A stretch of 59,143 nucleotides of DNA. Origin: Candidatus Omnitrophota bacterium. Lineage in GTDB: Bacteria > Omnitrophota > Gorgyraeia > Aquiviventales > Aquiviventaceae. Positions 9,006 through 53,209 of the stretch are shown one piece after another. The notes beneath the pieces are model-generated. The model was not told where the DNA came from. It saw only the letters and a program-made list of their open reading frames with translations, and did no database searches. The stretch lies in the NCBI GenBank assembly GCA_016193175.1, contig JACPSR010000044.1:1-59143 (forward strand). Direction: 5' to 3'. Made by a program: the position numbers and the translations under genes. Within the stretch, counting starts at the first letter, position 1, and every line of letters begins with the position of its first letter.

Positions 9006-12000
9006 TCACCGATCGTCTCCAGTGTCGCACCAGCAATAGCAGGAGCTAAGCGATCTCCCACCGTCTCGGTATATTCGCTCTCGACGACTCCTTGTAGGAG
9101 TACTTGATCCTCCTCGGCAACACCCTGAGTCCCAGCGTGTCGTCAGAAACTCCCGGGCCATGCGCCGATCAACGAGCGCCATCAACTCCACAGTTCGCTC
9201 AAGAGTCGGTGGCGCGACGACCGGCGGTTGTGCAGCGGCTGGCGGGGCTTCAGGCGCCTGGGCTGGCGCTGGGGGGGGCGTTGGCGAAGCGCCATCCGCT
9301 AAGGAGTTGAGGAGTCGCCAGGCCGCCTGGCGCAGATCCGCCACCTCGGCAGCCAGGCCAGCGTCCTCGGCTTGCGCGTCCAGCCCGATCAAGGCCGCCC
9401 AGACGCTGTCGCGTTGGCTGGCCTCTGGCCCTCCTTCCAAGCGCGCAATCGCTGCGGCATACTCCCGGCGGAGCTTCACCAGCACTCGGGTATGCTCGAA
9501 CAACCGCCAGGCCTCGGCGTGGCGCTGCGCCACGTCCTCATCGTCCTTCAGACCGGAGGAGTCGGCTAGCTTGTCCAGCGTGATCAAGGCCTTCCAGACA
9601 TCCTCAAGCGCCTGGGCGTCCGTCACGTGCTTCAACCTCTCGATCGCCTCGCCATACCCTTCAAGCACCTGGGCGCGGAGAGCGTTGGCCTCATCGAGTG
9701 GTGCTGGCTCTGGCGCTGGTCCGGCGGCAGACGCTGGTGCCGGCGCGGGCGGTCCAGGTGGCGCGGTTTCGCCTGCGACAACCGGCGGTGCTGACGCTGC
9801 TACCTCTGCTGCCCTCGGCGCCTCAGCCCCAGCCTGGACGGCTCCGGCGCCTGGCGCAGGTGCAGGAATCGGTTCAGCAGGAGCGGCTGCCGGTTTCGGC
9901 GTGGCTACGGGCTGGGAAGCTGCGCGATCGCGGTGTCGGACCAAGTAGGTGTAGACGAGCAAGACCGCCAAGGCAAACACCCCAGCCGCCACCGCTGGAT
10001 TCGCCTGGATGGTGTGTGACACGGCATCCAAGGCTTGAGACACGGAATCCCATATCGTTGCATGATGTGGTTCTAGTGGCTGGGCGGGCCCGAAGCCGCC
10101 CGCGAACTCGGGGGAAAGCGACGACGTCATCGCGGCGTCGGCAGGCACGCTCACCGTCTCAGCGCCGGAGAGGCGGATGAGCTGGCCCGGATGGATCAGC
10201 TCAGGATTCGTGATCTCCGGGTTGAGTTTGAGGATCTCTTGGACCTTCGCTTGAATCTCGGCGTTGGCGGGTGTGGCCACGCCTTCCTGCTTGAGCAGAT
10301 CCCGCGCGATGCCCCAGAGGGTATTGGCGCTGCCCCCGCGCCAGGTCTCAACCACCGCGACCAACCCCTTGTACGCGCTGGTCAGGGCCGGCGTCCCGCC
10401 CAACAGTGTCGTGGCCACCTGCGCCGCCTGTCTCAGTTGCTCCGACGTGAGGTTCGTGGCGGCGGTGATGACCTGCGCGTCCGCCAGCGCCACAACCCCA
10501 AGGAGCGCCGCCCCGATGAGCAGCGTCGGAACCACAAACGGCAGGACCGACTTCATCCGCTTAACCCATCCCTTGTCTGTTGCAGGTCCAGGCGGCGGCT
10601 CCTTTGGCTTCTTTCTTGCAGCAACCTGGACTGCTTGAATCCACTGGACAAGTTCCGGAGCGCCAATGGTTTCAGCGGCTCTTACCAGTTCATTGAGCGT
10701 ATCTTCAAGTGCCTGCTGCTCCTTCCGAAGCTCGGGTTCGCTCGTGACATAGCGAATTTGCTTGAGGCCCCATTCCTGAAATTGCCTTCGAATCTCCTCT
10801 TGAATTCTCTGTGAACCAGTCTGGTGATACACTGTCCCCAAGGCGATGAAATCAGGAGCTCTGCGACCGTTGAATGCCGCCGCGACCTTGCTGATCAGGG
10901 CTCCTTCCGTGCGCAACCATTCCTCCCGCCATTCCTTCAGAAAGCCCGAGGCTCGCGCGGCTTGCTCACCTGTGACAGGCAACGGCCTGAAAAGATCCGC
11001 ACGCGCCTCGTCCGCATCCCCACCGGCTCGTTCAACCACGCCCATTAGCTCTTGCCACGTGGCATAGAGCGACCATGCCTCGCCGGCCACACCTGCGTAC
11101 GGAATTCTCCGAATATCCTGAATTCTGCTGGCCACTTCCGTGACGTCGGTGGCGTTCCCAAGGTATTGGAAGACACTTCCCTGGAAGAGGCCTCGCAGCA
11201 CGCCGTGATTTCGCAGGATAGTGCGTGCAAGCGATGCTTGATTCGCCTGCGCGAATTGTCTTGGAAACAGCTTTCCAATCAGCTCGCTGAGTTGCTTGCC
11301 ATCCTTGATCAAGGCCTTCCCAACGCTGACCTGCTCCTTCATGAGTTGGAGCGAATCAATGAAGGTGCGATCGGTCATCTCACCAAGCAACGTGTCGGCC
11401 TTCGAGGAAAATGCGAGGAGTGTCACGACCCTACCTGTTTCTGAGTAGACATAGTAGAGCCGGTGGTCCCCAATTCTAGAGCGGGAGAGCCCTTTCGCTC
11501 TCCCATGCATCCCTTCCTTGCCTATCAGGCTAGGTAGCCTCGAAATCATGGTTCGAAGCTCCTCACGTGCGTCTGGGTATTGATCGACGTTCTCGGAGAA
11601 CCCAGGAGTCACTTGCATGTAGAAACCGCTTGGCCAGTTTGGCGGTTCGATGTGCCAGGGTCGAACATGCCCCTTGCCCCAATTCCCCAACGTCGCGGCG
11701 AGGCCGCCGACGCCGAGCGGGCCAAGAGCCGACCAGGCCGCGGCAGTCCCGAGCGAGCCGAAGTGCAGGGACGAGAGGTTCAGCAGGGACGAGAACCAAC
11801 TGGTCCAGTTGCTGCTCGCCTGGTCCAGGTGCCCGGTGAAGCCGATCGCGTCCCCCTGCAGGCCGACGAGCGCCGCGACGGTCATCAGGCCGGCCATCAT
11901 GCCGATCTTCCACGGAATGCGCGAAGGCGTCGGCGGGGCGGACGGAGTCTCTGCGATGCGCTCCGTCGTCCCCGGGTACGCGCGATCCGCGAGGTCCCGG

Positions 12001-15000
12001 GCTCGGGCGGCAATCGCGCTGGCATCCAACTGAGCTCGTTCCGCCAAGCGCTGCGCGTACAGGTTCTGGAACTGCTGGCGCGTGGCCTGGCTGGCTCGCC
12101 CGGCCAGCGCCCGCATCCTCTCTTTGAACCCCTCGGGTTTGAGGACATCCTCTTGCGCCCTTTGCGCGTCCTTGTCCTTGACCCCGAGCCCAACGGAGTG
12201 CTCGATCCGCCGCAGCTCCGGCCTGGCCGCCTGAACGGCCTCTTGGAAGAAGGTGGCGCCCAAAGCCAGCGCGAGTCCTGAGCCGAACCAGCCCGCCCCC
12301 ATCAGGCTCATGGGCATGACATCAGAACCCGGGAGGCCGGCCCACTGGGCCAGCGCAGAGAGGCCGCCGAGGAGCGCGGAGGTCGTCAGGGTGCTGACCA
12401 GGAGCGTGGGGGCAGAGGCGTCTTTATTGTGCACGGCGAGGCCGTTGGCGAAGTAGGTGGGCGTGGGGGAGGCGGTGAGGTTGTAGACCCGGGTGGGCGC
12501 GCGGATGCGCTCGATACTTATGACAGCCACTGGCACAAGCCCTTCGATCTCAAATGCCAAGGGGCTAGGGGCCAGCAGTGCGGCAGGGTTGACAAGATTC
12601 AGAATTGGTGATACAGTTGTCGCCGTGGAGCCGAGACTGACATCATTCTGGACCAAAGGTAGGCGGAAGGCCCTGTCGAGCACGTTGCTCACGATCTTCC
12701 AAATCCTCCTTGCTGAATGAGGGGAGAGGACCCATGTTATTCGCTGTGGTGACGGTGCTCCTGCTTGCGATGGTTGCGGGGGCGTGGCTCTTGATCGAGG
12801 ACCGCCGGCTCCGGAAACACGCCCACTGACTCCTCTGTCAGTAAAGGCTGCATCCACCATCAGTTCCTGCCCCGCCTGCAGGTCCTTCACCTTCACGAAC
12901 GCACCCTCCGGGGTGAAGATCGGATGCTCCCCGGTCACCTCCACCGTCTGGCCGCTGGCTAAGTGCACCTCGTAGTACGCCCCGACCTCCCTCGTGAGCG
13001 TGCGGACGACCTGGCTTGCCGTCAACTCGCCCGTCTCGGGATCAAACGCCCGCACGCGCTCCCCCACCTGCACCTGCTCAATCGGCTTGCTCGTCCCATC
13101 CGCCAAGGTAATCCGCGTCCCCGCCAGGAAGCACTCGTGTTTGGTGAGGCGTTCGAGTTGCCAGCGAAGTATTCCCAGACGTTCGCTGAGCACCGCCCTG
13201 AAACCGGGTTCGGCTGCGACCAGTTGCTCTTCATCGCGCCTGATCTGGCTCCGTAGCCACACTGGACTATTGAACTGGCGAAGGGTTGGCAGGACGACCT
13301 TCAAGTGACCTGGAACGGTTGCAGCCTTTTGCGCTTGGACTGGCGCAGGCGGCGCGGCGGCGGGGCTACCCAAAAGCGTAAGAAGCGTTTGATAGATGTC
13401 TGGCTTGCGGTCCTTTAGTCGTGGCAGGAGCCGCAGGATCTCTTGAATCTTCGCGGCAGCGGCCGCTCCTTTGTAGAAGTGTTTCCGCTGGCCCTGGATG
13501 CGATCTTGACCCGCCTCAAGCACGCGCCCATCCGACAAGACAGATCGGATAGTCAAACTTTCTGGATCGCCTGAATCTGGGGTGCTTCGGTGGCGTAGTG
13601 TTACCGTGACCACTATGGAAGGCTTTGCTTTCCCACCTGGCCCACCCATCTGCGTCAGCCCGACGGCCAGGGCCAGCGCGCTTGCCAGTCCGCCGAGGCC
13701 CACGCCCCCGACCGCTGCCAGCGTACCCCAGCTCGTGGAACTTCCCGGTGACGCAGCGACCTGGGCGACCTCGGCCACCGCGGCCAGCGCGGGATTGAGA
13801 CCGCTCGTGGCGAATACGAGCCCGCCGAGCGCCAACCCTGCGATCGCGAACTTGCCCCACGGTAGCGAAGCGGCGGAGCGGAGCGCCCGTTCGACGATCT
13901 CTCGCACTCGAGGACGTTCCAGTCTCCGTAGTTCTTGACGCAATCCCTCGATGTCTGATAACCGGCCCACGAGTTCCCTATTGGCAGGATGCTGGTCGGC
14001 CTGGAGCGCCTCAAGCTGCTGTATTCGCTCACGGAGTCGTCGCACCGCAGCCGCCTCCTCGACACTCAGCGTCTTCTCGTCCCGCTCGGATACTGCGGCC
14101 AGCCGCTGGGCCATCTCCTCGGCCAGCCTGAGCCGCCGCAGGGTCGCCTCCAGGACGCCCTCGAACAGCGACGCGGGGGCCGCCGGCTCAACCGCAGGCG
14201 ACACAGGGCGCACGTGGCGCTCCCTCCACCACTGGCGCAGGTCCTGCGCGATCTGGTCGTGGGCAATCTTGCCGTCCGGTGTGAGCCAACTCACTGGTCT
14301 ACCCGTCCACCAGGCGAACAACTTGGCCGCGCTCGCGACCAGCGCCTGTGGCCCCATCGTGAACATGAATTGCGCGCCTCCAGATCCTTCTTGACCACGC
14401 TCCTCCTCTGGCCTCAGGCGCTCGAACACGACAGGGAGTCTTACGCCTCGAACTACTGGTTGACCTTCAGCAAGTTTGAACAACCTAGAATTGATGACGA
14501 CCGCAGACACGACTTCCGATTTGTGCCCGCGCCAAAGCTCTGGGAGCTCCTGGATGTTAACCCGTTCACCGGGGGCAAGTCCGGCTAACGCAGCTTGGGC
14601 CTCCTCGATCTCCTCAACTATCGCCCGCCAGTCAAGATTGAGTCGTCTGATCTGTCCCCGCAATGTAGAGTCGGAAGCCAAGATTCCATAGACCTGGACA
14701 TGATCTCCAAGCGGCCGGAAGAGGTGAGACTGCCGAATCTGTTCTAACTGGTTCACCACAGCATCTCGATCCTCAGCAAGCCCTAGCCGTTCACCTGCCG
14801 CAACACGTTCCATTAGGCGATCAAGAGTTCCAGATCGCTCTTCCCCAGTCACGGAGGTTGTTGTTGGAAAGATGCGACCAGCTGTACGTTGCCCGTGTTC
14901 AAATAGCGCATACTCATCAATGTCCTCAATATCCTCTCCACGACTCGTCCGCACCACAAGCATCCTGGCAACATACGTTGCTTCAAACTCTATTCGAAGG

Positions 15001-18000
15001 AGCTCAACCGCACGCTGGAGGAATTGACGGCGCTCTTCGACGTTCAAAGTTGTGTTCCCTGCGATAAGCCGCTCCACTCCAATGAGATCTTCCTGCATCC
15101 ATTGAAGTTCCCTTGCTCGAAACTGAAAGGCCAAGTAGAACATGTCATCCAGCCTAATGCCAAGGTCATCAATGATCTGAAGCTCGCGCAGCTGGATATA
15201 CTCTGGTAATTCCGGCAGGGTGACGAAATAATCATAGAAACTTTGTGGCGGCACACCGCCGGGGCCGCCGTGTCTCAGATGCGCCAGAGCCAAAGCGCCG
15301 AGGAGCGAGGTGAAGAGGGCGAAGGCGGCGAGCCCCAAGGGGTTGGTGAGGAGGGCGGCGGCGTGCTGCAGGATGGGCGGCGCAAACGAGGCCCCCAGCA
15401 CCGGCGACGCGTGGCTACCCAGTATCTGATTGAGTATGAGCGAGCCCCACCCCATCCATCCCACGCCGCCCAAGAGGAGCAGGGTGTTGCGCAACGTCTC
15501 CCCGCCCTCCTCCGTCGGCTCGGCGGCGGGCGACGCCTGCGGCGGCGTGGACTCCTCAACAACCCGACCGATGACGAGCTTGCGGATAGCGCCAGGAGTC
15601 AGCGGATCTGGGCCGATCTCGCGGTGGAGGATGGCCACATAGCGGCCCTCTGAGTGAGTCGCCTCCTGAAGCATTTCGCTGACCTCAGGGAGGGTGGCTT
15701 GCGTGAGCGCGGTGAGATCTGGCCGGTCAACCACGTCCAGCGGAATCGTATGCCCGGCGTTGATGCGCCGCTCAATCTCTGCTCGCTCTGCCTCGCTGAG
15801 GGGCGGAACGGTGCGGGTGAGGTCTCGCGGTTCCTTTGGGTCGTCAATATCGAGTAACGTCCTAACGAGCTCAAGGTCTTGTTTAATCTTGAGGAACTCT
15901 CCTTGTTTAATCTCGAGGGACTCTTTGGAAGAACCCACAAGACCAGGATCAGGGTGCGCGTCGGCTAGAGCTCTGCGGATAGCTCGCTCCAATTCTCGTA
16001 ACGGAGCATCGGTCGGTACCTTGTAACGGTGTCTTAGCCCGAGCACCCCCGGAGCGCCTTCCAGCCGCTGTCGGAACTGCTCTTCCAATCGCTCGCGTTC
16101 CGCTGGACGCAGCCTCCCTAGCAAGAAATCTCGAACAAACGAGGCAAGATATCCCTGTTCGATCAGCCCATCATGATTCGCCACGAGCGAAGCTAACCGT
16201 CTCATGAGTTCAGGCTGATTCTCACGCAAGGCATGGAAGTGATAGTCGATCAAGGCCTTGGTGTAGCTGCGTTCCTCAAGTGCGTTCCACACTATTGTGT
16301 TGGTTAATTGCTCACGCTTATCTGTTGGCACGCCCTGTTGCTCCAGTCGCCTTGAGATAACCCAAAGGAGGGTATCGAAGCGATGGAGGCCTAATCCATA
16401 TTTCAGACCACCGAGAATCTCATTATCAGAAATCTGTGTGGCGATGCCGATGGCTTCATCGAACGTGTAGCCTGCTCCCTTAAGTATCGTCGAGGCTTTG
16501 TCTCGCACAGAGTCAATGTAGCGCTCGCGGGCACGCTGCTCCTTTGCGACTTCAAGCTCCAGGTCCTCTCGGAGCCATTCAATTTGCTGCAGATGGGGGG
16601 CTTTCATCCCCTGTTCAAAGCTGGGATCACCCTGGAGTTCGTCGTAGAGCGCCTGGATTCCTGCAATCCGGGCTTGGATTGGACGTTGAGCTCCTGCAAC
16701 CCCCCTTGCTTCAGACACGCGCCCTGCCAACTGGGCAAGCTGGTCTTCGGCATGGCTCAGTCTCGAAATGAGGGATTGTCGGTATGCTCCATAGAAGGCT
16801 TCTACGACCGGCTGGTCTGAACTGCCAAGCGCTCCAGCGATGGCACGGTACACTGTCAGAGATAGTCCTCCGGTCCCTGAATGCTGCTGGAGCTCTTCGA
16901 GCGGCCTGATCCCGGCTGGACGCTGACTTATCTGGACAAGCGCATTGACGATACTGTTGATTCTCGGGGCCACGAGCGCTGTCAGTAGGTCGTTTCGATG
17001 AGTCTGATAAAAGGCGTTCACCACAGTTACTTCCTGCGTTCCTAGCGCCTCAGCAATGGTCCAGTAAACCGTATGGGACAACACGGCTCTCTGTGCGGCG
17101 AGCAGCTGCTCGATGGCCCTGGGAGCCATTCGCTCTAGCGCAGAGACGACTTGCTGAACCGGTGTTACCTCTGGCCCAACAATGTTGCCGGTTGGATCAA
17201 CCTCAGGCGATGGTTTGGCCTCCCCACCGCTTGCCCCCTCCGGCTCTTGTTGAAGCGTGATGAAATAGAGGGCGGCTTCCTCCCTGAGCATTTCAAGCGG
17301 GAGTCTGGGAATCGCTATCACTAAACCTGATGAATAACCCTGGGGCGGCTTCTGCGCTGCCGCACGATGCATGGCTTCGGAAATTCCTGGTAATGAACCA
17401 GGTCTCGTTTTTTGAAAGATGCCTGGAAGCCATTCTGTGAGGAGAGTATTTGAACCCTGCGAATGCGATACTGACCACCAGCCCTCCCCGGGATGAAAGA
17501 TCAGCCTTACAACCCGAAACAAGGTGAGCCACGCATAAGGAGTTGCGGCAATCTCAACTAAATAAGGACCCCGCTCATCTTCCTGCTGTGGCATGACTGC
17601 GTGGGTGACTTCGTGAGTGATCGTGGTGTACAGATAGCTTTCAAAGTGTTTATTGAGGAAGCGTTGAGCATCCTCGGTCACCTGTGGCCATTGGTTGGCA
17701 AGAAGCAATTTCAACGTGTCATCCACCACCTCATTACCTGTTCGCTTCTCTTCAGGCAACTCGCCGTGGGTTCTTTCCAGGTGCAGCCGCAGGGCGTAAT
17801 AGCCCATCAAATCCTGGGCAAGGGCCTGCCTGCCAACCAGGATGGGGATCGCCTCATTGATCCGCACCGCTGGAATCGCAGCCGCAACGATTGTCCTCTG
17901 CCCTGAGCGGCTTTCCAGATAATCTGGCACAAGGGTTCTTCCGACAAATACCGCAAGCGCTCGTGTCTCCGTCCCCACAATGTTCGCCATCACAGGGTTG

Positions 18001-21000
18001 GTTTGCTCAACCTCATACACCGCAAGCCAGGGCATGTTGCCAATGGCGCGATGGTTGACGACCGCCGCGTGCGTGCCGAATTGGAGAAATCTTCCTGAGG
18101 CGAGAAACGCCTCTGCGAGCGCCTCCATGACGGTTCGTTGCGAGAATCGGCCCTGACGAAGTTCCGCTGCTAATCGGTCAAAGGCAGGGATACCTTGTCC
18201 AACAGCCGCGATCTCTGCAAACAGCGCCTGATAACGATCCCACACATTCTGCGATAATTCGTTGACTTCGCGTGTGCCCTCAGGGAAAGCGGCGATCTCC
18301 TGATCGATCACGGCGTGAATCTCCTCAGTTCTTGCCCTCAGGAGCTCCTCAACTCTTCTGACGATTTGTGCTTGAACGTCAGCCCCCACTGTAACGCCAG
18401 GGCGCGGAGTGAGACGCTGCTGGAAAAATGTGTCCAGCAGTTCTCGATTGGCAAAGATCATTCGGGCATTGGCGGCCCCAAAGACATCGAGGCCAAGGTC
18501 CTTACTAAGCCAATCATCCACCGACTTACCTGAATTGGTCTGCGCGGCTTTCACCCGTTCATAGGCTGCCTGTATGCCCGGAACGTCTGTGTCCGCAAGT
18601 TCTTTGTCGCGCCCCTGCAAGAGCAGGACAAGAACCCCCCGCACCAGTTGTACATCTTGAATAGGCGCGGGCGGCTCGGCGGCGGTAGACGTAGACGTGT
18701 AATCCCTCACGGGGGTTCGGCCTGGTGTTCGTTCCCGGCGGGAGAGCCGCTGGAGGAGGTCTGGCTGACGCTTACCGTCATGGGCCAACAGGTGCGCCAC
18801 GACCTTAATGAGCCCCTCTTCGACGGTCTGCTGGAGGGAGGCGGTGGCGACGCGCTCCTGTAGCTCCCCTTCGGCGGCCAGGTGTTCCGTGAAGGCTCGT
18901 TCGACGGCAGGATCAACGAGGAGTTCAAGGAGTTTCCGGCGGAGGTACGATTTCTTCGCTTGCTCTTGCTGCCACGCTCGGAAGAGGACTTCGACGGCGA
19001 CGCTGACCGGGTTGGGTTGGCCCATGAACGCGATGAACTCATGGACGAGCCGGGCGGCTTCCTCGGTGGGATCGATCGATGCCTTGGACTTCCAGAACAC
19101 GTGGATGCCACGATCCGAGGCGTGGCCTTTCGGGGGGCCGCGGGCTGGATCGTGGAGCAGCGCGGGGTCCTTGACGGTGATCCGATTGACTTGTGGACGG
19201 ATCTTACGGTCGCCCGGCGTGATCGCGGGGAGTTCCCTTGGCACAAGGCCTGCAAAGATCTGGGAGAAGCCGTCAAGCCCCTTCCAGCCTCGTTGAGGCT
19301 TCCACTCGTCCTCCAGCGCGCGCAGGAAGGCCTGGGCCTCTAGGACCGAGGGGTCTGTGGAAGTGAGCCGATGTTGCTCGATGCGGGAATCCTTTGAGTC
19401 AAAGGCTGGCTTGAGCCAGAACGCGTCGATGGCGGCTTCATGCTGCTCGTACCCGGAGATCCGGAGCTGTCCCTCCCCCACCATCTCGTAGTCCCGCTCC
19501 CCAGCTCCAACCGTCGGCCCGGCGGCGGGCGGCTTGGACGGTTCGGTTCGATGCATCGCGCCAGCGACGGCAGGGACCGTGGGACGGCCGCGCACCGCGG
19601 AGAGCAGCGCATACAGAAAAGCGGAGGCGCTGTAGCCAAGACTGAGGGAGCTGAACAACCACAGGTAGGCGCCCACCCAGAGCAGACCAGGCAGGCTGGG
19701 CGCAACACCGAAGGAAAAGACCCCGCTTAAGACGTACCCCACAGGTAGGGCAGCCAGCCCGAGGATGACGCCGGTGCGAAGCGATTCCCATGGTCGCTGG
19801 TTCAGATCCCCTTCAACGAGCAGGCGCCCCTCGGTAACGAGATCGAACAGCCACACGCGCTGAGCCTCCAGCAGCGTGCGCACAGCCTCCCACCGTTGCT
19901 GGATGATGGACGGAAGGGGTGCTCGCAGGGCTGCAAGGAGACCAACCCGCTCGCGCTCACCGCGCAGGAAGCCTGCGCGCGCTTCTAGCGCCAACGTATG
20001 CGCCTCGTCTTTGCGAAAGCCGCGGCTCCGTAACCTCCACTCCACGACTTCATGGACCACGTCGGCCGCCGCCTCTCGGTCACCGGCCCACGCTTGTGCG
20101 AGGCGCTCCCGGCCCAGCAGGAACTTGCGGTACCCAGTACCTTCAAGGATGAGCGCCGTCAGATCCTTGTTCTTCAGCCACTGCTGAATCCGCTCATCAA
20201 GATCGGCGATGGTGGCGAGGATCACATGCGGCAGGAGCTCCTTCACCTCCGCAGAACTCAGCCCGATTGCCTGAAGCGCCTCGCCGATGCGCTGCCGATC
20301 CTCTTCCGTCATGTCGCGCTGCTGGCGGTCGGCCCATTCGACTATTCCTTCCCCGCTCTTCCCCCGCCTCATCAGCCGATCCAGCAACTTGAATGCGCGC
20401 AAGAGCTGGGCCCCCCGCCGTCCATGATGCATCGCCCCGGTAACCCCAAGCCGGGCTGGTCTCGGCCGAGCTGCATTAGTCGCCACGGGTGCGGCTGGTG
20501 CAGCAGGCTTGGTTGGCGCGGCGGCAGCCGTCTGAGCTTTTTGGTCCAACGACTGGAGTGCTGTGGCGACATGCCTCAGTCTATTCCGTAGGCTGTTGAA
20601 CTGGGCTTGGACGTTGCGAGGCAGTGCCCTGAGAGTATCGGAATCCATCGCGTCCAAGAGGTCGCTCACCTTCTTACGCTCCTCCCATTGGGCATCCAAC
20701 ATCGCCTGGGTGGGTGGTGAGCCTGTCTGCAACGCGCGGAGCCGGGTTTCAATGACGGTGAGCTGCGCCTCTGCCGCTCCGAGAGCAGCGGTCGCTTTAC
20801 CCTCTTCTGGATGGACCGCGGCAGGAGCCACCGCACCGGCAGCAGCACCCGACCCCGGTTGGTGAGGTCGAGGAACAGCAGGCTCGGCTCGCATCTCTTC
20901 GGCTGGACCCCCGGCTTGGCGCCGAGCGCGCTCGTGGGCAACCTCAGCCTTGATCCTCTTGAGTACGTCTATGCCGAGCCTAAACAGGGTGTCCCGAAGG

Positions 21001-24000
21001 ACCGCTTCATACGTGGAGTTCAGATGGTAGCGCTGCGCAAACTTATCGTACTTGCCAAAATGATTGCGGAGTGTTTGTTCAAGAGCGCCGCGCTGCTCCT
21101 GCTCTTGATCATCAGTATGCAAGCTAAGCGCCTGTGCTGTTACCTCATGGAGCTCAGCAGCGACCTCTTTGGCTTTTGCGACTGACGTCCCAATGTCATT
21201 GTCTTGCCTAAAGGCGGCGAATCCAGCCTGCTCCGCATTGGCAAGGATGCGGTTGTAGATCAAAGCTCCAAGGCGCTGGTCCTGTTTCAGGAGCTTCTTG
21301 AATAAGTCGAGTCTTTCTACGCGTAATTGCATTCGTTCATATGCTTCCTCCTCAGAAAGCTCCCCAGCAAGCTCCTCAGGAGAGTAGTTCAAAACGCCGG
21401 CCTCCTCAAGCTTAGCGATTTGCGCAATCATGCCTTGACGGTCTTCGGTTTGAGCCGCTGGAGAACCGGCTGGCGCTGGGTGAGTGGGTGGAACTGCGGA
21501 AACCGCCGCAGCAGAAGCCGCCGAGGCAGCGGCTCCTTCAGTAGTGCGGTACCGGGCTCCTTTCGGAGCGCGGCGCCAGCCGATCCGTCTGAGGTCGTTG
21601 CCATACCGCTCGACAACCCCAGCCCCGAGCCGGAGCGTCAGATCCCGCTGATCCTGCTCATCAGCTTGCCGCGGGGCATAGGCCAGCACGATCCGGTCAC
21701 CCTCCACCTCCATGACCACGAACACGACAGACTCTCCGATCCAGACATCTCCTGGCTGCACGTCTCTGACGAGATCGGCTCGGCCGGCCGCCACCGCGGC
21801 CCGGGCGCGTGCGCCAATGGCCTCCATGAGCGTCTGATCAAACACGCTAAACTCCGGCTGCCGCCGACTCGCGCCAAACGCCTCACGCCGCGAGCGCCGC
21901 TTAACTTCGTCTAGCAACACCTCGTCTGGCGCGGTCCCCAGGTCAACCTTCGCGATCGCCGCTATCTCCTGGCCAACCTCCTCCAGCACCCATGGTTGCG
22001 AGGCCATGGCCTCCTCAAGATTCTGTGCGGTCTTTCCTGACGCAAATTCAAGGTGGTCCTTCGTCGTTCCCCTGGGAGATGTGAGGCGGACTCCATGGAT
22101 CAGGTCTTTCTCGATCCCGAACCTCACATCAGCAACGAGAAGGAATTCTCTCAACCCCTCGCCTGAGGATACTGCCACCTCGACGACCCGGGGCTGGCCA
22201 CCGCCATCAGAAGCAGCGGAGGCGTCGAGGATTGCCATCGCCTCGTCTTTGGTCAAAACTCTCCTGCTGCTCGCGGGCGCAAGCCGGCCTGATCCCGTTG
22301 TCGTCGCCTGGCCTCGGGCTCCCGAAGCAACGGGAGCTGGCGCGGCGGGCTGGGCGCTTGCGAGTTGTTGCGCCGCATCGATATCAGCCTCGGAGATCGC
22401 CACGCCGAACGGGACCCACTCTCCACGAGCGTTCTTCAGCGCAACTTGATACCCATACCGACCGTTGGTCTCCGGGTAACGCCCCGGCTCAAAGACCTGG
22501 ACAATTCTTGCCTCTCGAGGAATCGCGTCGGCAGGCACCTGCCCTGTCGTTGGGTCTACCCATCGAGACGCAAACCCGCCACTGGGCAGGGGAGCCATCA
22601 AGATATGAACGGGTTGCTTCGAGTCTGTATACGGTTGATACCGAGGCGGCGTGGGCGCAGCAGTGGCCGAGCGTCGTCCTAATGCGACCCGTGCCTGGAC
22701 GGGGTGCGCGATCAAGGGCGCATGCGTCGCCCCGCGCCTGATGGTCCGGGTGACCTGGAGACCCACCCCCTCCACGGCGGCCACGACGTCCCCAGCAGCC
22801 CCCTCAACCGCCTTCATCGTCTTTGGATTGAAGGCATCGCCCACCGTGGGTTCGACGATCTGGCCGGCCTGCTCGCGCGTCAGGGTCTCCACGGCGGCTC
22901 GGAGCTGCGCATACACGGTTTGATGCGCCACGGTCCGAGCCCGGTGTCCGAAGAGCAGGTTCACGAGGCGCATCAGCTCAATGGCGAACTGCTCATCGGA
23001 TTGCTCGCCGCTGAACCGCAGGGTTTGCCGTAGCTGCGTCCAGACCGCATCAAGCGTCCGGGTCGTCTCGGCCTCGGCCGTCACCGCGGGATCCTGCCGC
23101 AGCCGTTGGAGGGTTTCCAGGGCCGGCGCCAGGAGCTTGGCATGGCGCTCCACCCCGTCCAGTTCTGCATCAGGCAACCCATCAAGTGAAATCTCGAACC
23201 GCTCTAACAGGACTCGTGGGTCGGTGGCCGCTTGTGGCGCGGGCGCAGCTGGGACGGCGGCGGCTGGCGCAGTGGTGCCTCGAGGCCCAGCCAGATCCAT
23301 CAACAATGCCTCGACTTCGAGTTCTACTTGCTTCTGTCGGATCGCCGCGAGGATCGCTCGCTTGATCGGCTCGGTATCTTCAGGAGTCAGACGCAGGCTG
23401 CGATCCGCTGGCACAGTGATCGAAATGCCACCGATCAAGGAGAAGGAGACGGTTACAAACGATCCTCCGGGATCGATGGCGACCGTTGGCTGGAGTTGCT
23501 CGTTGCGCTCCCCATTCATACCGATACCAAGCAGATATCCAAGTTGTGTGATGAGAAACCCCAAGCGCTGAGGGGTGGGAGGAAGTGACTGCCGGTCGAT
23601 CATCCTCGTAATGCTGCCCATGACCTGCGTGACGACCTCGGCTGTCAGATCTTTGAGGCCTTGCGGTGGAGGACCAGCTTCCCCGGGCTTTGATCCTGGG
23701 GCGGCTGGTCGAGCTTCAGCGGCAGAGGAGCGAGGAACTGCACGCCCGACAGGGATCGCGATGGCCGCAGCAGAGATGTCGTCCGGCTTGCGGTAGCGCT
23801 GTTCACCCTCATTGAGCTGATCGCGCGGGGTGGTGGCGATGCGCATAGCCTCATCGACCAGCGTGTTGACCAGCGCGTCGGGGGGTGCGTGTTGCGCCGC
23901 GATTTCCCTGATGTTCTTCTGCCCCAGATTGTCTGAGACACCATCCGACATCGCCACGATCACATCGCCTGGGTCGAGCCGTAGACGGATTTTTTGACGA

Positions 24001-27000
24001 TCCTGAAGCGCCTCGGCTCCCTCAAAGCCCAATGCGGCAGTGATCTCGTTGCGTTGAGGATGGATCTCGGCCGCTTCTTGCGAGATTTCCCCTGCGTCCA
24101 CGAGGGCTTGCACGAGCGAATCGTCTTGGCTCACCTGGATCATGTCGCCAGCAGCCGTCCGGCGGTAGAGCCGGCTGTCACCGATGTTCGCCCCAATCAG
24201 CCAGCGTTGACCGACCCCATCCGTCCACACAACGGCCACCGAAACCGTCGTTCCCATGCCCTCCTTGCCGGAGTCTTCTTGAATCTCCACAAGAATTGCC
24301 TCCTGCGCCTCAGCTATCGCCCGGTGAAGAAGTCCCTCAACGTCTTCGAGAGAGGAGGCCGCGACAAGACCCTTCGAAACGACTTCAACGATACGCTGCT
24401 GCGCTAACCGACTAGCCACCTCGCCTGCCGCGTGCCCGCCCATCCCGTCTGCTACTAAGATGAGACCGAGGTTCGCATCCTCGTAGACCGTGTCCTCGAT
24501 GGTCTCTGGAGTGGGGCGTCTTCGCTTGTCATAGGCTGTCTCTTGCCGAGAAGCGACGACATAGCCGGCGGCAGATGGCATGGCAGCGGCAATGGGCGCT
24601 GGCGCAGGTGGAGCGCCTGGCGCAACGACGGGCGGCTCACCAGGTGCTTCAGAGGAGGGTTGCTCTTTGCGGCGAATGAGCTTTGACGCGGCCGCCACAA
24701 AAACGGCCTCGTGGGAGGTTACGGCGTACACCGTGCCGGTTTCCGCTCCACGATCATCAAGCACGATAAGGAACTGACCATCAAACCGCAAGTGTGTTTG
24801 AGCTCCGTGCTCCAAGACATCCCCCGGCCGCAGCGAGTTAAGGATCGCCTGGCCAGAGGCTTTGGCTTCTGCCAGCTCAATGTCCGACGCCTCTTGATGA
24901 GTTTTGCCCGCCGCAAGGAGCTGCTGGCGTCGGGTTTCGCCTGGCCGTTGATACCGCGCGGGCTCATTGCTGGCGGCATCAGCGTACCGGGTCCCTTGCG
25001 TAACATCGGACGGCTCTGGCGCGGCAGGCGGCACGGGAGGCAAAGGAGGAGTCATTGGGGGCGCTTCAGGCGCCGGGGTGGGCGCGGCGGGCGCAGCGCC
25101 ATGCGGGGCGGCCGGCGCAGCAGGTATGGACGCTGCTGGGGGGGCTACATCCCCTGCTGCGGGCGCTTGAGGTTCAGGCGCAGGGACCGCAGCCATCTTG
25201 GCTAGAAGGGTCAGGATCTGCTGGCTGAGTTTTGCCGTCTCCTCACTGAGACCATAGGAGTCAGCCTGCTCATCCAACGTCTTGAGATCACCAAAGATTT
25301 CATCATGTGCAGCGTCATCGAGAACGCCTGGTTGCAAGCGCGTGATCACCTCGAGATATTGCGGAACGAGACTGGAGAGGAGCCCTGCCTTCTCATGCAG
25401 TTTCCTCACTTCTTCATCATCACCGAGGCCAAACGACTTGGCCTGCGCATCTGCGGCGATGAGCGACTGTTGCGCCGCTTCAAGCGCCTGATCATCCGCC
25501 ACGCCCTTCAACGCCTCGATGACCTTAACATACTTCTCGATCGCCTGGGCACGTCGGGCCTGAGCTTCGTCCACAGACGCGGCAGGTGGGGGGGGCGTGG
25601 CCCCGGCTGGGGCTGGCGCAGGAGCCACCGCTTGGCCGTCTACAGCCTGCGCTCGCTGCGCTCGTCGGCGCGCCCGGACGCGGCGGATCACATAGGCTGC
25701 TGCCAGGGCCATTGCAAGAGCGACGATGACGCCAACCACGATCGCGAGATAGGGATGCGCGTGGATCGCCTGGACCAGCGAGTCAAAGAGGCCGCTTGCT
25801 CCCGTCGTTGCGTGCTCGCCGCCGCTCGAAGTCGCGCTCGGCGGCTGTACCACATGCTCATCAACGCTCCAGGACGGTGGTGCGCTCGGCAAGGACTGGC
25901 CAGTGAGCTTGGCGATGACCTCTTGAGTCGCGAATTCCTGTGGAATCTGAATTTTTTGTCCAACCTCGATGATCTCCGGATTGCTGATGGCGTTGGTCTT
26001 GGCGATCTCTTGAACGAGATTAGCGATCTGGGTATTCGTCGGCTCGACCCCCTTGGCCTTCAGGATGTCGCGCGCAATGCCCCACAGGGTGTTCTGGGAG
26101 GGATTCGCAAACGTCCAGCGATCCGGCACGGCCAGGAGATTCGACGCTTTGGTAAGGAACTGATGCGCCAGGGCCACCCCGGGCCCAAGAAGGACCGCTC
26201 CCACCGCCACCACGCCCATCATGACAAGTTTTGGCCAGGCCTTCCGAATCATCCCGCGAAGGAAACTGCGCGAGACCCGTTGTGTGCCCGCCGTCGGCTC
26301 GGCGGGCAGCTCGGCAGATGCGTGAGGCGCGAACTCAGCGGACAGCTCTACAATTGGGTTGCCGGCATGCCAACCGTCCCAGGCGTTGCCCTCCTCGTCG
26401 GGCATCCACAATTCAATGGGCGCTATTCCAACAGCGGGCTGGCCTCTGAACGGAATAGGATGTTCTCGGTCGTACTGGGTTATTCCCCACGGTTTCTCGC
26501 TGTCGGTACGTCCAACGAGGTGGAGTCTGTCGCCACGGAACACCACGCGTACCTCACCGCTGAGCGTACCGTGGAGGCCAATGCGTTGAGCGTCTTCAGG
26601 CGAGACGTACACCGTGCGGACGCTCGGCGGCTTCACACCGACGTCGCTGGCAGGGTGGCCGGGGTGTGGTGTCTTTGTGCGGCGCGTCCGCCCTCGCTCG
26701 TCTACCTCATACGTGGATCCCTGGGCTGTGACCAAGACTTGCGTCACGCGCCCAAAGGGGCCAGGGCTCTCTGATCGTAGTTTCGATGGTTCGCTGGGCG
26801 GCTGGGGTCCCGTCGTCAAGGGGTGGAGACGCCAGCGGCGCAGGAAGCGCGTCAGATTGGAGAGGCCGTTCCAGAGCAACCCGTGAGCGGTGGCTTCCGG
26901 CCGCGTCGCCTCGGTCATCAGGCTCGGCATCCCCCCGCGCGGCGTCCCGGAGGGCAGCGGGCCTAGCGCACCCGCTTTTGATACCTCCGGAACCGCATTG

Positions 27001-30000
27001 AACGCGCGAGCAGGAACCTGATCGGCAAGACGATCCGTCCCCGGTCGTTTAAGCGCAACATCCCGACTCGCCTTTTCATCTGTCACCTCCTGTTGAAACC
27101 AGCCTCGGGACTTTCCAAAAAGGGCGATTCCGCCGAACAGCCAACTGGAGAGCAACCCAAGCGCGCCGTCCGGGGCAACGCCGGCCACCGTCGGCATCCC
27201 GGCGCCAATGGGTACCGCAGGCGTCAGCGACGCCAACCAAGTGCCTACCGCTTGGAGCGCCGGCGTCACAAACGGCGCCACCGCCTGGAACAGAAGGTAC
27301 GCCAGTCCCATGAGCACCATCGCTTGCGACGCCGGTGAGACCTCCTTAAAGAAATCCCTCATCATGCCTTTGAAGATGTTCTCCTGCTTAGGCGTGAGCG
27401 GTTCCGGCGTCCGTTCAATGGCTGGCCCGGATGTGCCGGGCACTGATGGCTCGACGGGCGGAGCGGGCGACGCTTGCTCAGGCTTGGCCTCAGGCGCTTC
27501 TGGTGGGGCGGCTGACGGCGCTGGCTTGGCTTCAGCAGCCGGCGCGTGACGCGCAGCGCTTGCGGCCGCCGTTTCGGCTACGTCTGGCGCAGCGGGTGCA
27601 GGCGTAGCGGCTGCTGGCACAGTGGCTGGAATTGGCGCGGTGGCGTTGGACTGCCGGACTTGGGTGGTAGCGGCCGGAGTCGCAGGTCTGGCGGCTGCCC
27701 CTGGCTGTGCGGCTGGCGCAGGCGCTCCCAAGGCCTGTCTCAGCCGGGTAAGCGCGAGATTGCGCCGAAGCTCGTTGCTAAATTCAGGATCAGTTCCTGG
27801 ATCGGCGCGCTGGGCCGCTTCGAAGTGCGCGAGGGCGTCTTGATATCGGGCCTCGTTCCAAGCGCGAATTCCCTCGTTGGCATGGCCGAGCGCCACATTG
27901 TATTGAGCCGCTGCAAGACGGTGTTGAACGGTCTGGGCGAGTTCGGCATCCTCCGCATCCTCCGATGAGACGCGCCCAAGGGCCTTCTGATAGCTGTCAA
28001 TCGCATCCCCATATCGCTGTTCCTCAAACGCGGCGTTTCCGATCATGGCATAGGCGCCCGCGTCCGTAATCTTCGACGCCGGATCAAACAGGAGGAGATG
28101 GCGTATGATTTCCTTGGCCCACTCATCGAGACTGACTGCTCTGGCGAGTTGCACAATAGGCTTCGGCGCAATCTTCAGAACCTGCCGCTTCTCTTTCTCC
28201 TCGGCGCCTGGCACTTCAACCTCAACATCTTCCACCGTGGACTGCGCCATGACAGCGGATCGTCTCTTCGCCGCTTCCGGCAAGGAGAGCTCCCTGATCA
28301 GATCGTGGTCCACCGCGGCGAGGATGCGTGCCGTCTCGAGGTCGATCTGCGAATCCACCATAAGAAAGAAGAGCCACGGGTCGCGGTCCATCTGAGCGGC
28401 CGCCTCCTGCACCATCCCAACCGTCGGCTGCTTGCCCTCCAGCCCTCGCAGCTCCCTGAGGCGATCTCTGGCTGCCTGGGACGTGCGATGGAGGTTCGCC
28501 AAGATCAGGAGCGGGGGAACCGGCGGCTTGCCTTCCTGGGTCTTCGCCTGGCTGCTGAGCGCGCTCATGAGTCGCGCCCAGGACATCAAGGCCTGATTGC
28601 GTGCCAGTGAGATGATGTCACCAGCAGACGGCATGGTGGGAGCGGCCAGGTGCCGCACATCGACCCCTTCGGTCAACTTCGGGTTCACGTCATTCAGAGC
28701 TGTCACCAACGTCTCAACCCCCTCCAGCTCAGCTTCCGTCGTGCCCAACCCGAGGAAGAACTGGGCGACGACCAGCGGCGAAGCCTTGTTCGTCTCGGCG
28801 AGCTTCTGAACCGCTTCGAAGGTCACCGCCTCGTTGGGCTTGAGGATCCCCTCGATCGCTTCTCCCTCACCCTCGTACAATTTCTTGACATCCAGCGCGG
28901 TCTCATAGGCGCCGGCAGATGCAGGCGCTTTCGGCGTATCGTATTTGGTGATGAGGTTCGCGACATCGAGCGGCGTGCGCGCTGCCATCGCTTCCTGGAT
29001 CGGCACCGCCGACGCAATGCCGAGGGTCTTTAACCCCTGCCACACGGCTCTGATTCGCTTGCGCTTCTTCTCATCGGCGTCCGGGAAGAAGAGAGGAATG
29101 AACATGGCGCTGGTGATGGCCGCTGAGCGTGGAGTCTGAGGCGCGGGTTCAGGGGCTCGCGGGACGCCACCGCGACCTCCTCCACCAGGCGGGCTCGGAG
29201 GAACGCCGATACCGCCCCCGGTCCCTCCACCGCCTCCAGGGCCGCCACCGGAGATACCTCCACCACCGCCCCCGGTCCCTCCACCGCCAACTCCACCACC
29301 ACCAGGAGGCACCGGAGGAACAACACCACCACTCCCGCCACCAGGAGGCGCAGGTTCAGGACCTCGCGGGACGCCACCGGCACCTCCACCAGGCGGGCTC
29401 GGAGGAACGCCGATACCGCCCCCGGTCCCTCCACCGCCTCCAGGACCGCCACCAGGAGGCGCAGGAGGAATCGTGCCGCCACCAACAGGAGGAGATTGGG
29501 GAATCATGCCTGAGCCGCCACCTGGTGGGATACCGCCGCCCCCAACTGGCGGCGTCGGAGGAACAGCGCTGCCACTGCTCGGCATCGATGGAACGCTGGG
29601 CCCTTCCACGCTCGTTGGCGGTGTGGATGAGACGCTACCGCCGCTAGGAGGCATGGGAGGAACAGCGCCACCTCCGCTACCAGCCCCGCTGCTCCCTGAA
29701 CCTACACTTGAGGATTGATCTCGGCGCATCGCCTCCGCCAGGCGCTCTAACGTCCCAAACGTGACGGCGGTGTTCTCTAAGGCGCGCTGCGCGCGGGTTA
29801 TTCGTTTTCCATCGAGAGCTCCTACTTTCACTTGCTCTCCACCTTGCTGCTTCTGTTGCACTCGCTCAACGATCTTTCGTGCCTTTTGGGCCTTCTTCTG
29901 GGCGGACGCTTGCCCTTTAATGATGTCGCCAAGCTCCCGATACAGCGTCGGGTAGGCCGAGGCGTCAATCCGATCCCGAATGAACTTGGCCAGGATCAGC

Positions 30001-46421: not shown

Positions 46422-46481
46422 CGTCGGGTCCGGCGTAATCGTGAGGGTGGGAGCAATTGTGATCGGCTCGACAGCAGCCGG

Positions 46482-46560
46482 CTCGACGGTTCGACGGTTC
46501 GACGGTTCGACAGGTGACCTCGTCTGTCCTACTGCTGTCGAGCTGTCGAGCTGTCGAGCG
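46482..46560. repeat. Hairpin built from octanucleotide tandem repeats: (ggttcgac) x3-4, a loop, then (ctgtcgag) x3.
   Basis: gctcgacggttcgacggttcgacggttcgacag-gtgacctcgtctgtcctact-gctgtcgagctgtcgagctgtcgagc. The arms pair with G:U wobbles when read as plus-strand RNA. It lies where two minus-strand frames are simultaneously open. Confidence 0.8.
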
Positions 46561-46574
46561 GATAGGTTCCGGCT

Positions 46575-46893
46575 GGCGGAGTCGCCACCGGGACTCCGGG
46601 GATTGAACGAGGCGTTCGATCACGTGGGCGAGCTGGGGGGAGCGTTTCAGGAACTCGAGCGCCTCGTTGAGCTCTTGCTCCGTCGGGGCGCGGCCGTAGA
46701 GGTCGTCATACATCGTCAGGATTGCGCCCCGGTGTTGCAGCTCAAGCTGGCGCTGCAGCTCGCTTGAGAGCTGCAAGGCCTGGAGGGCGTTGGCGTCGGC
46801 GCCCCAGACCGCCTGCTCCGCGGCGAAGAGGGTCGCGAGTGCGACGCAGAAGGCTTTTGTGCGTTTAAGTGCCAACCACCGATCGATCCGCAT
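46575..46893 (-). CDS. Signal-peptide/TM anchor plus DUF4214-like segment, the probable true 5' end of the giant gene. It is out of frame with ORF-1 as assembled.
   Basis: ATG 46893 lies 4 nt after the tadC stop (aagTAGaggcATG). The N-terminus is MRIDRWLALKRTKAFCVALATLFAAEQAVWG, followed by MYDDLYGRAPTEQELNEALEFLKRSPQLAHVIERLVQSPES (DUF4214-like). Track ORF 46180..46893 turns junk-like after about 46570. Confidence 0.6.
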
Positions 46894-48696: not shown

Positions 48697-48869
48697 TGCC
48701 CGTTGACCACGGTCACCCCGTGCTCATACTGCCGGCCATAGCCAAAAGCGTCGGCCACCATCCGCCATCTGCCGGCAAGCGCCCGTTGGGTATACACCGA
48801 CATCGCCACCAGCATCGCGACGGCCACCGCGATCAGGACCGCGTATTCGATCGCACTCTGACCCTGCAT
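48693..48869 (-). CDS. Flp-like pilin paralog (58 aa).
   Basis: MQGQSAIEYAVLIAVAVAMLVAMSVYTQRALAGRW... carries the G-x-x-x-x-E-Y prepilin motif plus a hydrophobic helix. The N-terminal 72 codons of track ORF 48693..49085 run through a repeat element and were trimmed. Confidence 0.7.
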   Translation of the reverse strand: MQGQSAIEYAVLIAVAVAMLVAMSVYTQRALAGRWRMVADAFGYGRQYEHGVTVVNGQ

Positions 48870-48880
48870 CCGCGGAGGAC

Positions 48881-48950: not shown

Positions 48951-48955
48951 TTGGA

Positions 48956-49402: not shown

Positions 49403-49407
49403 CTCAC

Positions 49408-53207: not shown

Positions 53208-53209
53208 CG

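Follow-up and report, generated by a model that had tools for sequence, protein, structure and literature searches.

A candidate Hint autoprocessing domain and a predicted RelE/ParE-like module within a giant, Tad-linked protein of Omnitrophota type

The stretch of DNA analysed here, called the window below, comprises 59,143 nucleotides of contig JACPSR010000044.1 (assembly GCA_016193175.1, Candidatus Omnitrophota bacterium). It carries a Tad/Flp pilus locus (46898-59080, minus strand) directly upstream of a giant gene on the same strand. Deep within the encoded protein lies a candidate Hint domain, followed by hydrophobic segments and then by a RelE/ParE-like domain (Table 1). A preliminary description of this DNA had taken this order of parts for a polymorphic-toxin-like release architecture. 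Our analysis points instead to a Hint domain of the type-A bacterial intein-like (BIL) or PT-HINT kind, which may divide the giant protein into two membrane-anchored pieces, and to a RelE/ParE-like domain that is possibly an accessory module of the second piece.

The Hint and RelE-like region is in frame within a minus-strand open reading frame (ORF), ORF-1 (46421..9006, 12,471 amino acids (aa)), in which residue n corresponds to window position 46421-3(n-1). The stop codon at 9006 is not the natural end of the protein. An exhaustive representative search with aa 11558-12007 found P0003, a protein of 3,870 aa encoded on contig JACPTW010000026.1 of GCA_016192565.1 (locus L084), which is 99.9% identical to the window. 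P0003 is 99.8% identical to ORF-1 aa 10162-12429, and runs on for 1,585 residues past this match, over which it is 99.9% identical to the minus-strand frame 9142..2 of the window (ORF-2). Between the two frames, 50 nucleotides (nt) that encode TIEELKATRASLLELI in L084 are absent from the window at 9135/9136. The resulting frameshift accounts for the Cys/Arg-rich, out-of-frame tail of 42 codons at the end of ORF-1 and for the stop at 9006. At one place L084 in turn has 39 consecutive N, and there the window is unbroken and open. When the window and L084 are combined, a single ORF of 15,829 codons emerges, whose end lies 1,016 nt past the left edge of the window; ORF-1 and ORF-2 are one protein of ∼15.8 thousand amino acids (kaa). 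The deletion itself may be an assembly error or a true variant. With an intact protein of ∼15,829 aa, the Hint domain lies ∼70% along it and ∼4,500 residues follow. The preliminary description had envisaged release of the C-terminal ∼1,100 residues, plus ORF-2 if contiguous; the contiguity is borne out, and the length must be revised upwards to ∼4,500. At the other end of the gene, the true start codon is uncertain because its first ∼80 codons share their DNA with a 237-aa ORF in another frame (46180-46893, minus strand).

The candidate Hint domain scores far beyond chance against several family profiles. A 239-aa segment passes the Pfam cut-offs for Intein_splicing (2.8e-11, 43.9 bits vs a cut-off of 35.8, profile positions 1-155 of 155), Hint PF01079 (8.7e-11, 42.3 bits vs 29.7), and PT-HINT PF07591 (3.6e-10, 40.7 bits vs 27.7), as well as that for NCBIfam intein_Nterm (30.4 bits vs 24.5). 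Among PDB sequences, the top match is 8w20_A (9e-12), deposited under the name 'Intein C-terminal splicing domain-containing protein', and 2lwy, a BIL domain of the C. thermocellum type, matches at 1e-9. The nearest database relative is a Streptomyces 'polymorphic toxin-type HINT domain-containing protein' (41% identity). The other relatives are an RHS-repeat protein and two more, and the PT-HINT relatives from Streptomyces and the RHS protein share 33–41% identity with the domain.

The motifs of the domain can be placed precisely. The string ECFLAGTRI corresponds to aa 11096-11104, with the codon of Cys11097 at 13133-13131, and GLAVHN followed by K to aa 11327-11333, with the codon of Asn11332 at 12428-12426. 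In an alignment of the domain with four relatives (alignment A2, five sequences), the invariant positions are F-AGT--L-DGT-K-IE in block A, T--H in block B, and the Tyr of YNLT in block F. At the nucleophile position of block A, P0008 has Ser and the other four sequences have Cys, and the VHN of block G is common to the domain and three of its four relatives. The C-terminal block ..VYNLTASPTPTYFANGLAVHN aligns with ..VYNFKVDDFHTYHV..VLVHN of 2lwy and with ..IYHIQVENNHNFFANGVLAH of the 6y75 intein, and a YN[LF]..TY pattern in block F is common to the domain, its nearest PT-HINT relatives, and 2lwy. Blocks A, B, F, and G, whose alignment the preliminary description had suggested, are all present. 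That description had also recognised a complete Hint domain with an N-terminal Cys, a TxxHP block, and a terminal VHN, and had judged classical splicing unlikely from the Lys that follows. We agree on both counts: three Pfam cut-offs are passed, all autoprocessing residues are there, and the +1 residue is Lys11333. Since the +1 residue is not a nucleophile and the autoprocessing residues are complete, cleavage is expected rather than classical splicing. With its Cys1, TxxH, His-Asn, and +1 Lys, we assign the putative domain to the type-A BIL or PT-HINT kind, and not to the splicing inteins.

Few sequences are available for comparison outside the Hint domain. The giant host protein is lineage-specific, with almost no relatives in the databases searched. 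A word-indexed protein search with aa 11058-11724 or with the Hint domain alone returned two hits in each case, all via the Hint domain, and a search of GTDB genome contigs and JGI metagenome contigs with aa 11333-12007 returned no relatives. Comparison of ORF-1 with itself revealed no second Hint domain and no paralogue of the Hint flanks. The only homologue found for these flanks is the 99.9%-identical L084 copy, which carries the Hint domain too, with Q11182H as its sole change. An AlphaFold2 (AF2) model of the domain, built from a five-sequence alignment, has a mean predicted local distance difference test score (pLDDT) of 45, with 60–83 in the N-terminal half and values below 50 from residue 98 onwards. 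This model was too poor to use.

An insert (aa ∼11190-11300) separates the N- and C-terminal halves of the Hint domain and brings its length to 236 aa. It is placed where inteins carry an endonuclease or a linker. Its G+C content at third codon positions (GC3) is 0.52–0.56, against 0.8–0.9 in the flanking Hint halves. The Hint halves and the transmembrane (TM) block that follows (aa 11097-11599) have a GC3 of 0.78–0.96, with a step exactly at the first codons of the Hint domain. This pattern may reflect a modular or foreign origin, and it is not unique within the gene. We did not adopt a foreign-cassette origin of the Hint and TM block on the strength of its high GC3, because GC3 is strongly mosaic along the whole of ORF-1 (0.34–0.96, mean 0.67, in 50-codon windows).

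The RelE/ParE-like segment was previously placed ∼270 codons past the Hint domain. That figure fits the start of the domain (∼268 codons past the Asn), and the motif string then quoted (aa 11646-11676) lies 314 codons past it. Structure prediction backs the fold assignment, and the sequence evidence stays below threshold. Pfam ParE_toxin matches the segment with E=0.035–0.054 (14.5–15.1 bits vs a cut-off of 23), and the copy in the relative P0006 has a sub-threshold Gp49/HigB-like match (E=0.07) from the same Pfam clan. Searches of the PDB with phmmer and with profiles gave nothing significant for the segment, and an hhalign comparison with E. coli RelE gave a probability of 0.4, in the expected register. 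An AF2 model of aa 11584-11920, again from a shallow alignment of five sequences, reached a mean pLDDT of 71.9, and ∼80–85 over the RelE-like domain. The modelled topology is beta(18-21)-alpha(25-30)-alpha(33-52)-beta(63-67)-beta(70-77)-beta(82-90). In a Foldseek search of the PDB with this 337-residue query, ranks 1–19 were all RelE, HigB2, or YoeB toxins (probability ∼1.0, target TM-score 0.52–0.67, E 0.016–0.1), followed by ParE, YafQ, and others. The structure-prediction check proposed in the preliminary description thus returned the beta-alpha-alpha-beta-beta-beta order and the matches that such a fold calls for. As the sequence tests are non-significant, the claim draws on the predicted structure and on two sub-threshold matches to one Pfam clan; on these grounds we regard a RelE/ParE-like fold as likely. 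Its catalytic competence is doubtful. In a low-confidence register, an Arg stands opposite RelE R61 (hhalign) and, when the alignment is extended by hand, basic residues stand opposite K54 and R81, with nothing opposite K52 or Y87. At the aligned basic positions the four relatives differ, and none of these residues is kept in P0004.

These four relatives (P0004–P0007) come from the representative search, with library-wide E-values of 1e-6 to 2e-5. P0004, P0005, and P0006 cover both the RelE-like domain and the helical domain behind it (24–28% identity over ∼320 aa, E 1e-6 to 7e-6), and P0007 covers the helical part only. The motif KG(L/M)..(I/S)R..(D/N).(R)L(Y/F)(Y/F)....(V/L)(T/K)LLAF is common to the giant protein, P0005, and P0006. 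P0004, P0005, and P0006 each stand alone as a complete protein (1,395–1,893 aa) in an ordinary locus, and Pfam finds a Hint domain in none of the three. The RelE-like and helical domains therefore form an independent evolutionary unit rather than cargo coupled to Hint. In P0004 (JGI 3300078620, 1,893 aa), an SF1 helicase (aa 283-717) related to the Mokosh defence helicase MkoA (8e-42) precedes the module (aa 761-1077), a fusion that hints at an RNA-related role. In P0006, TM segments stand directly before the module, as they do in the giant protein. The module alignment (A1) found no match in the word-indexed protein search, and PADLOC found none for the module itself. The helical domain has no significant fold or family match, no fused antitoxin domain was recognised in it, and no cognate antitoxin gene was recognised for the RelE-like domain. 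Compared with RelE/ParE toxins, the domain shares the predicted beta-alpha-alpha-beta-beta-beta topology and the (K/R)G..R.R..D.RL(Y/F)Y....(V/L)TLLAF motif; it differs in lying below the Pfam thresholds, in its place ∼11,600 residues inside a giant protein, and in being always followed by the matchless helical domain. We take this ∼330-aa module for a multidomain branch of the RelE/ParE superfamily that has so far gone undescribed. Its RelE/ParE-fold domain is possibly a conserved accessory module, perhaps with an RNA- or ribosome-related role, and not a classical C-terminal polymorphic toxin.

Table 1. Features of the giant gene and its predicted protein in the window (residue numbers refer to ORF-1 unless ORF-2 is named)
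Feature	Window position	Strand	Residues	Evidence and remarks
ORF-1 of the giant gene as found in the window	9006..46421	-	12,471 aa	Contains C39, M48, LysM-like, PP2C, Hint
Peptidase_C39		-	aa 222-309	Pfam
Peptidase_M48		-	aa 2080-2269	Pfam
LysM-like domain (first)		-	∼aa 6778-6827	Below Pfam cut-off
PP2C		-	∼aa 7315-7500	Pfam
Hydrophobic cluster upstream of Hint, ∼2 predicted TM segments	13647..13865	-	aa 10853-10925	Kyte-Doolittle
Candidate Hint autoprocessing domain, type-A BIL / PT-HINT kind	12426..13133	-	aa 11097 (Cys1)-11332 (Asn)	Pfam, NCBIfam, and PDB matches
Hint block A CFLAGTRITLADGT	13092..13133	-		Nucleophile Cys11097; alignment A2
Hint block B TGEHPIF	12915..12935	-	aa 11163-11169	Thr11163 and His11166 form TxxH
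Insert within Hint, ∼100-110 aa	12522..12854	-		Pro/Ser/Gly-rich, one predicted helix, no family match
Hint blocks F and G RVYNLTASPTPTYFANGLAVHN	12426..12491	-		Penultimate His11331, terminal Asn11332
+1 residue Lys11333	12423..12425	-		Not Cys, Ser, or Thr
Hydrophobic cluster 1 after Hint, ∼2 predicted TM segments	12246..12407	-	aa 11339-11392	Starts 7 residues past Asn11332
Charged, probably helical linker	11919..12245	-	aa 11393-11501	Read from sequence
Hydrophobic cluster 2, 2 or 3 weak Gly/Ala-rich predicted TM segments	11676..11918	-	aa 11502-11582	
RelE/ParE-like (BECR-fold) domain, predicted	11379..11640	-	aa ∼11594-11681	AF2, Foldseek PDB, sub-threshold Pfam ParE_toxin and Gp49
Helical partner domain, ∼245 aa	10647..11378	-	aa 11682-11925	With RelE-like domain in P0004-P0006, alone in P0007
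Strong single predicted TM helix between RelE-like module and LysM-like domain	10482..10547	-	aa 11959-11980	Kyte-Doolittle score 2.48
LysM-like domain	10170..10325	-	aa 12033-12084	NCBIfam SafA/LysM-type 7.7e-4, below cut-off; internal duplication
Strong predicted TM helix	9939..9995	-	aa 12143-12161	
Junction of the 50-nt deletion relative to L084	9135..9136	-		DNA alignment; L084 counterpart 7278-7325
ORF-2, continuation of the same giant protein	2..9142	-	3,047 open codons	Runs off the window's left end; 339 more codons in L084
Strong predicted TM helix of ORF-2		-	ORF-2 aa 188-206	Kyte-Doolittle; more TM clusters further on
SLT lytic transglycosylase domain	7355..7693	-	ORF-2 aa 484-596	Pfam SLT 2e-18

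Hydrophobic clusters were called with Kyte-Doolittle 19-residue windows only. The clusters that the preliminary description had noticed after the Hint domain are recovered by this measure at aa 11339-11392 and 11502-11582. Further towards the C-terminus, the SLT and LysM-like domains point to a role on cell walls. Both must reach peptidoglycan, and exactly two strong TM helices stand between them, in keeping with a place outside the membrane for each. A single strong TM helix stands between the RelE-like module and the LysM-like domain, and the RelE-like module is accordingly predicted to be cytoplasmic in the producer cell. A block made up of a TM segment, the LysM-like domain, a second TM segment, and a Pro-rich helical stretch (aa 12013-12374, 10385-9300) duplicates aa 6756-7076 (26154-25194) with 40–51% identity. 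This internal TM-LysM duplication suggests that units with a common ending were fused or duplicated as the giant gene became longer.

In the neighbouring Tad locus, a gene for a CpaF ATPase is accompanied by two T2SSF (TadB/C) genes, one gene for a 738-aa Tad-domain protein, and at least six for Flp-like pilin paralogues, whose C-terminal extensions are long. Among genomes, CpaF finds its best matches in Omnitrophota metagenome-assembled genomes (MAGs), at 62% and 59% identity, and many other phyla reach 52–60%. The window contains no marker genes, and a literature search with the assembly accession gave no match; on the evidence of its genes the host, an uncultured bacterium from groundwater, probably falls in the Omnitrophota/PVC group, a tentative placement at phylum level. 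The window has a GC content of 62%, against 43–45% in the CpaF loci of the Omnitrophota MAGs, and no giant ORF lies within 10 kb in the Omnitrophota loci retrieved through CpaF. A c-di-GMP-I riboswitch (56633-56772, minus strand; 53.6 bits, gathering score 35) is located just upstream of the Flp-like pilin ORF 56512-56057. Beyond the giant ORF, the next gene in L084 (17532-19485, plus strand) encodes at least 651 aa and is thus not a small immunity protein, in keeping with the preliminary description, which had seen no immunity gene. Residues 484-537 of this gene product give a borderline MraZ/AbrB-like ('antitoxin-like') match (5e-5, 23.6 bits vs a cut-off of 23). Rfam and tRNA scans of the Hint/RelE-like region gave no match, and neither did a family search with the plus-strand antisense ORF 11580-12281. 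Elsewhere in the giant gene, aa ∼5710-5900 (window ∼29300-28700, minus strand) form a long Gly/Pro-rich low-complexity tract with PPGGG-type repeats, at which GC3 swings from 0.38–0.44 (aa 5651-5750) to 0.84 (aa 5851-5900). A tandem duplication of ∼75 residues at aa 2443-2592 (39093-38646, minus strand) has 72% identity, rising to 88% over a 42-residue core.

The closest known counterparts of the candidate Hint domain and of its host protein bear on what the domain may do. Type-A BILs have Cys1, a C-terminal His-Asn, and no +1 nucleophile; they mostly cleave, and splice inefficiently by aminolysis (Mills, Johnson & Perler 2014, PMC4031507). The domain described here resembles them (Amitai et al. 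2003; Dassa et al. 2004; PDB 2lwy) in its Cys1, TxxH, YN[LF]..TY, and His-Asn, in the absence of a Cys, Ser, or Thr at +1, and in its host, which is not a housekeeping enzyme but a large bacterial protein that is not conserved. The same chemistry is also to be expected, with cleavage on the N-terminal side, the C-terminal side, or both, and ligation minor at best. It differs in size (236 aa vs ∼135–150 aa, owing to the insert of ∼100 aa), and in its position between two predicted TM hairpins of a ∼15.8-kaa protein. The host protein, in turn, resembles the giant Omnitrophota proteins, which start with a C39 domain, contain many TM segments, and are flanked by Tad cassettes, and for which processing into smaller polypeptides has been proposed, with C39 or S8 as candidates (bioRxiv 10.1101/2023.11.21.568195; 10.64898/2026.06.07.730766). 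The shared features are a length above 10 kaa, the N-terminal C39, the many TM segments, the LysM-like and SLT domains, and a Tad cassette immediately upstream. Where C39 and S8 were proposed for those proteins (West-Roberts et al. 2023; 2026 complete-genome preprint), the present protein has an internal Hint candidate; text searches of the main text of both preprints turned up neither an intein nor a Hint domain, and matched 'Hint' only in 'Hinthiali-' taxon names. The same principle is at work in MARTX and the large clostridial toxins, very large multidomain precursors that an internal autoprotease divides into parts which act separately (Zhang et al. 2012, PMC3482391). Those are soluble, secreted toxins with an unrelated, caspase-like, inducer-dependent cysteine protease domain (CPD), whereas here a Hint domain sits in a multi-pass membrane protein. 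For the RelE/ParE-like domain, ToxM provides a precedent of a cytoplasmic BECR domain tethered through a TM segment to a periplasmic domain (Gerdes 2025, PMC11980606), the same order as in the topology predicted here.

We assign a probability of about 0.5 to the reading that the Hint domain mediates fission of this giant, C39-headed, Tad-linked, Omnitrophota-type protein into two membrane-anchored pieces. After folding, Cys11097 would undergo an N-S acyl shift, helped by Thr11163 and His11166, and the thioester between Glu11096 and Cys11097 would then be hydrolysed. Asn11332 would cyclise with the help of His11331, breaking the Asn11332-Lys11333 bond. Lys11333 would be unable to carry out transesterification, so that the outcome would be mainly cleavage, with at most a minor ligated product formed by aminolysis. 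The precursor would thus be cut at one or both Hint junctions. The N-terminal piece of ∼11.1 kaa would contain C39, M48, the first LysM-like domain, and PP2C. The C-terminal piece of ∼4.5 kaa would begin with a TM hairpin and continue with a membrane-tethered, probably cytoplasmic RelE/ParE-fold and helical domain, the second LysM-like domain, and SLT, the last two predicted to face peptidoglycan. As a tentative extension, which we hold to be possible rather than probable, the giant genes of this class could be polyproteins: a Hint domain, acquired as a cassette with its flanking TM hairpin, would cut the ∼15.8-kaa precursor co- or post-translationally into two stoichiometric, membrane-anchored machines, the C-terminal of which would couple a cytoplasmic RelE/ParE-fold sensor or effector across the membrane to the LysM-like and SLT domains that cut the cell wall.

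Several points weigh against fission at the Hint domain. The AF2 model of the domain is poor, so that the Hint fold, which has to be assembled across the ∼100-aa insert, is a prediction from the sequence, as is self-cleavage at the junctions. The acidic or His residues that many inteins have in block F are replaced here (VYNL..SPTPTYF), although the YN[LF]..TY pattern recurs in the nearest PT-HINT relatives and in 2lwy. Topology was deduced from hydropathy alone, and the membrane side of the Hint domain depends on whether the cluster at aa 11502-11582 has two spans or three. Database searches turned up no orthologue diverged enough to test the conservation of Cys1 and Asn. Finally, if the deletion at 9135/9136 is real in the strain, the locus may be decaying.

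Some of the same points would suit a Hint domain that is an inactive relic or a structural module, either a decayed mini-intein or an acquired PT-HINT cassette, within a giant protein that remains uncut. The +1 Lys, the large family-less insert of different codon composition, the failure of AF2 to assemble the C-terminal half, and the lack of diverged orthologues that could show purifying selection on the catalytic residues are all compatible with it. Relics usually lose some of their catalytic residues, however, and no such loss is seen here in Cys1, TxxH, YNLT..TYF, or His-Asn. The insert occupies the very site at which inteins tolerate large insertions, and type-A BILs without a +1 nucleophile are experimentally active in cleavage (PMC4031507). 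With class 1 mini-inteins the domain shares blocks A, B, F, and G, the C-terminal His-Asn, the end-to-end Intein_splicing match, and the intein_Nterm score above cut-off. Unlike those inteins, the present domain has a +1 Lys, with which the canonical branched intermediate cannot form, and lacks a homing endonuclease. The searches found its flanks in no protein that is free of Hint, and hence offer no conserved 'extein' site. We consider an inactive domain rather unlikely. The polymorphic-toxin-like device favoured by the preliminary description, in which a PT-HINT domain would free a RelE/ParE-type RNase toxin equipped with membrane-insertion helices for use against competitors or prey, we consider improbable. 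Its attractions are the PF07591 match and the nearest Hint relatives, which are found in polymorphic toxins, the predicted fold, which belongs to the BECR class widely used by such toxins, and the suspicion that giant Omnitrophota proteins are predation factors (10.1101/2023.11.21.568195). Polymorphic toxins carry HINT immediately before the toxin domain, which forms their extreme C-terminus, and an immunity gene comes next (Zhang et al. 2012, PMC3482391); the PT-HINT relatives P0002 and P0008 have ∼110–125 residues after the VHN. Here, by contrast, ∼4,500 residues follow the Hint domain, with numerous TM segments and with cell-wall domains among them. Between Hint and the RelE-like domain lie ∼270 residues that include two hydrophobic clusters, and the RelE-like domain is itself followed by ∼4,150 residues, far from the true C-terminus. 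It is also predicted to be cytoplasmic, and copies of its module occur in proteins without Hint, one of them with a helicase. In the low-confidence register, counterparts of RelE Lys52 and Tyr87 appear to be missing, and the aligned basic residues differ among the relatives. Pfam finds no RHS, FHA, PAAR, or LXG-type trafficking domains or repeats in the whole protein, its matches being C39, M48, LysM, PP2C, Hint, and SLT only. No small immunity gene was found. The two available strains, 99.9% identical on both sides of Hint, show no polymorphism downstream of it, a comparison too narrow to weigh either way.

The two remaining alternatives carry far less weight. It is very improbable that the locus is an assembly artefact or a pseudogene from which nothing functional is made. 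The frameshifting 50-nt deletion and the mosaic GC3 would be expected under this explanation, but the frame stays open for 37.4 kb and then for another 9.1 kb, with in-frame domain matches along its whole length. An independent NCBI assembly, 99.9% identical, is open across the deletion site, and the neighbouring Tad genes recur on contigs from three separate sequencing runs (SRR12113422, SRR12113425, and SRR12113390). A Hedgehog-like reaction is the least probable, and we give it hardly any credence. It would have the Cys11097 thioester resolved by some nucleophile besides water, for example a membrane lipid or a cell-wall amine, thereby covalently anchoring the 11-kaa N-terminal fragment, with the hydrophobic segment after Hint in the role of the sterol-recognition region. 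PF01079 is indeed among the best Pfam matches (3.3e-10 for a long segment, 8.7e-11 for the isolated domain), yet this match covers only the generic N-terminal half of the profile (positions 9-90 of 213). The hydrophobic cluster does begin 7 residues after Hint, but there is no evidence for an adduct-recognition region, and the retained His-Asn points to Asn cyclisation, which is absent in Hedgehog proteins.

Whether bacterial proteins of 10,000 to more than 100,000 residues act whole or are cut is an open question, and only C39 and S8 peptidase domains have been suggested so far as processing enzymes of giant proteins. Hint domains in large, variable bacterial proteins are not surprising in themselves. 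The candidate described here is a member of a known family in an unusual setting, in the middle of a giant protein, between predicted TM hairpins, and with a large insert. Its neighbourhood also urges caution: a toxin-like fold behind a Hint domain should not be read as a polymorphic toxin if the domains lack the order and the position that such toxins have. An apparently intact, cofactor-independent Hint autoprotease at a defined position offers a concrete and easily testable site. If the polyprotein reading is true, no processing site in a giant protein of Omnitrophota type would have been defined before this one, and a new multidomain branch of the RelE/ParE superfamily would come with it.

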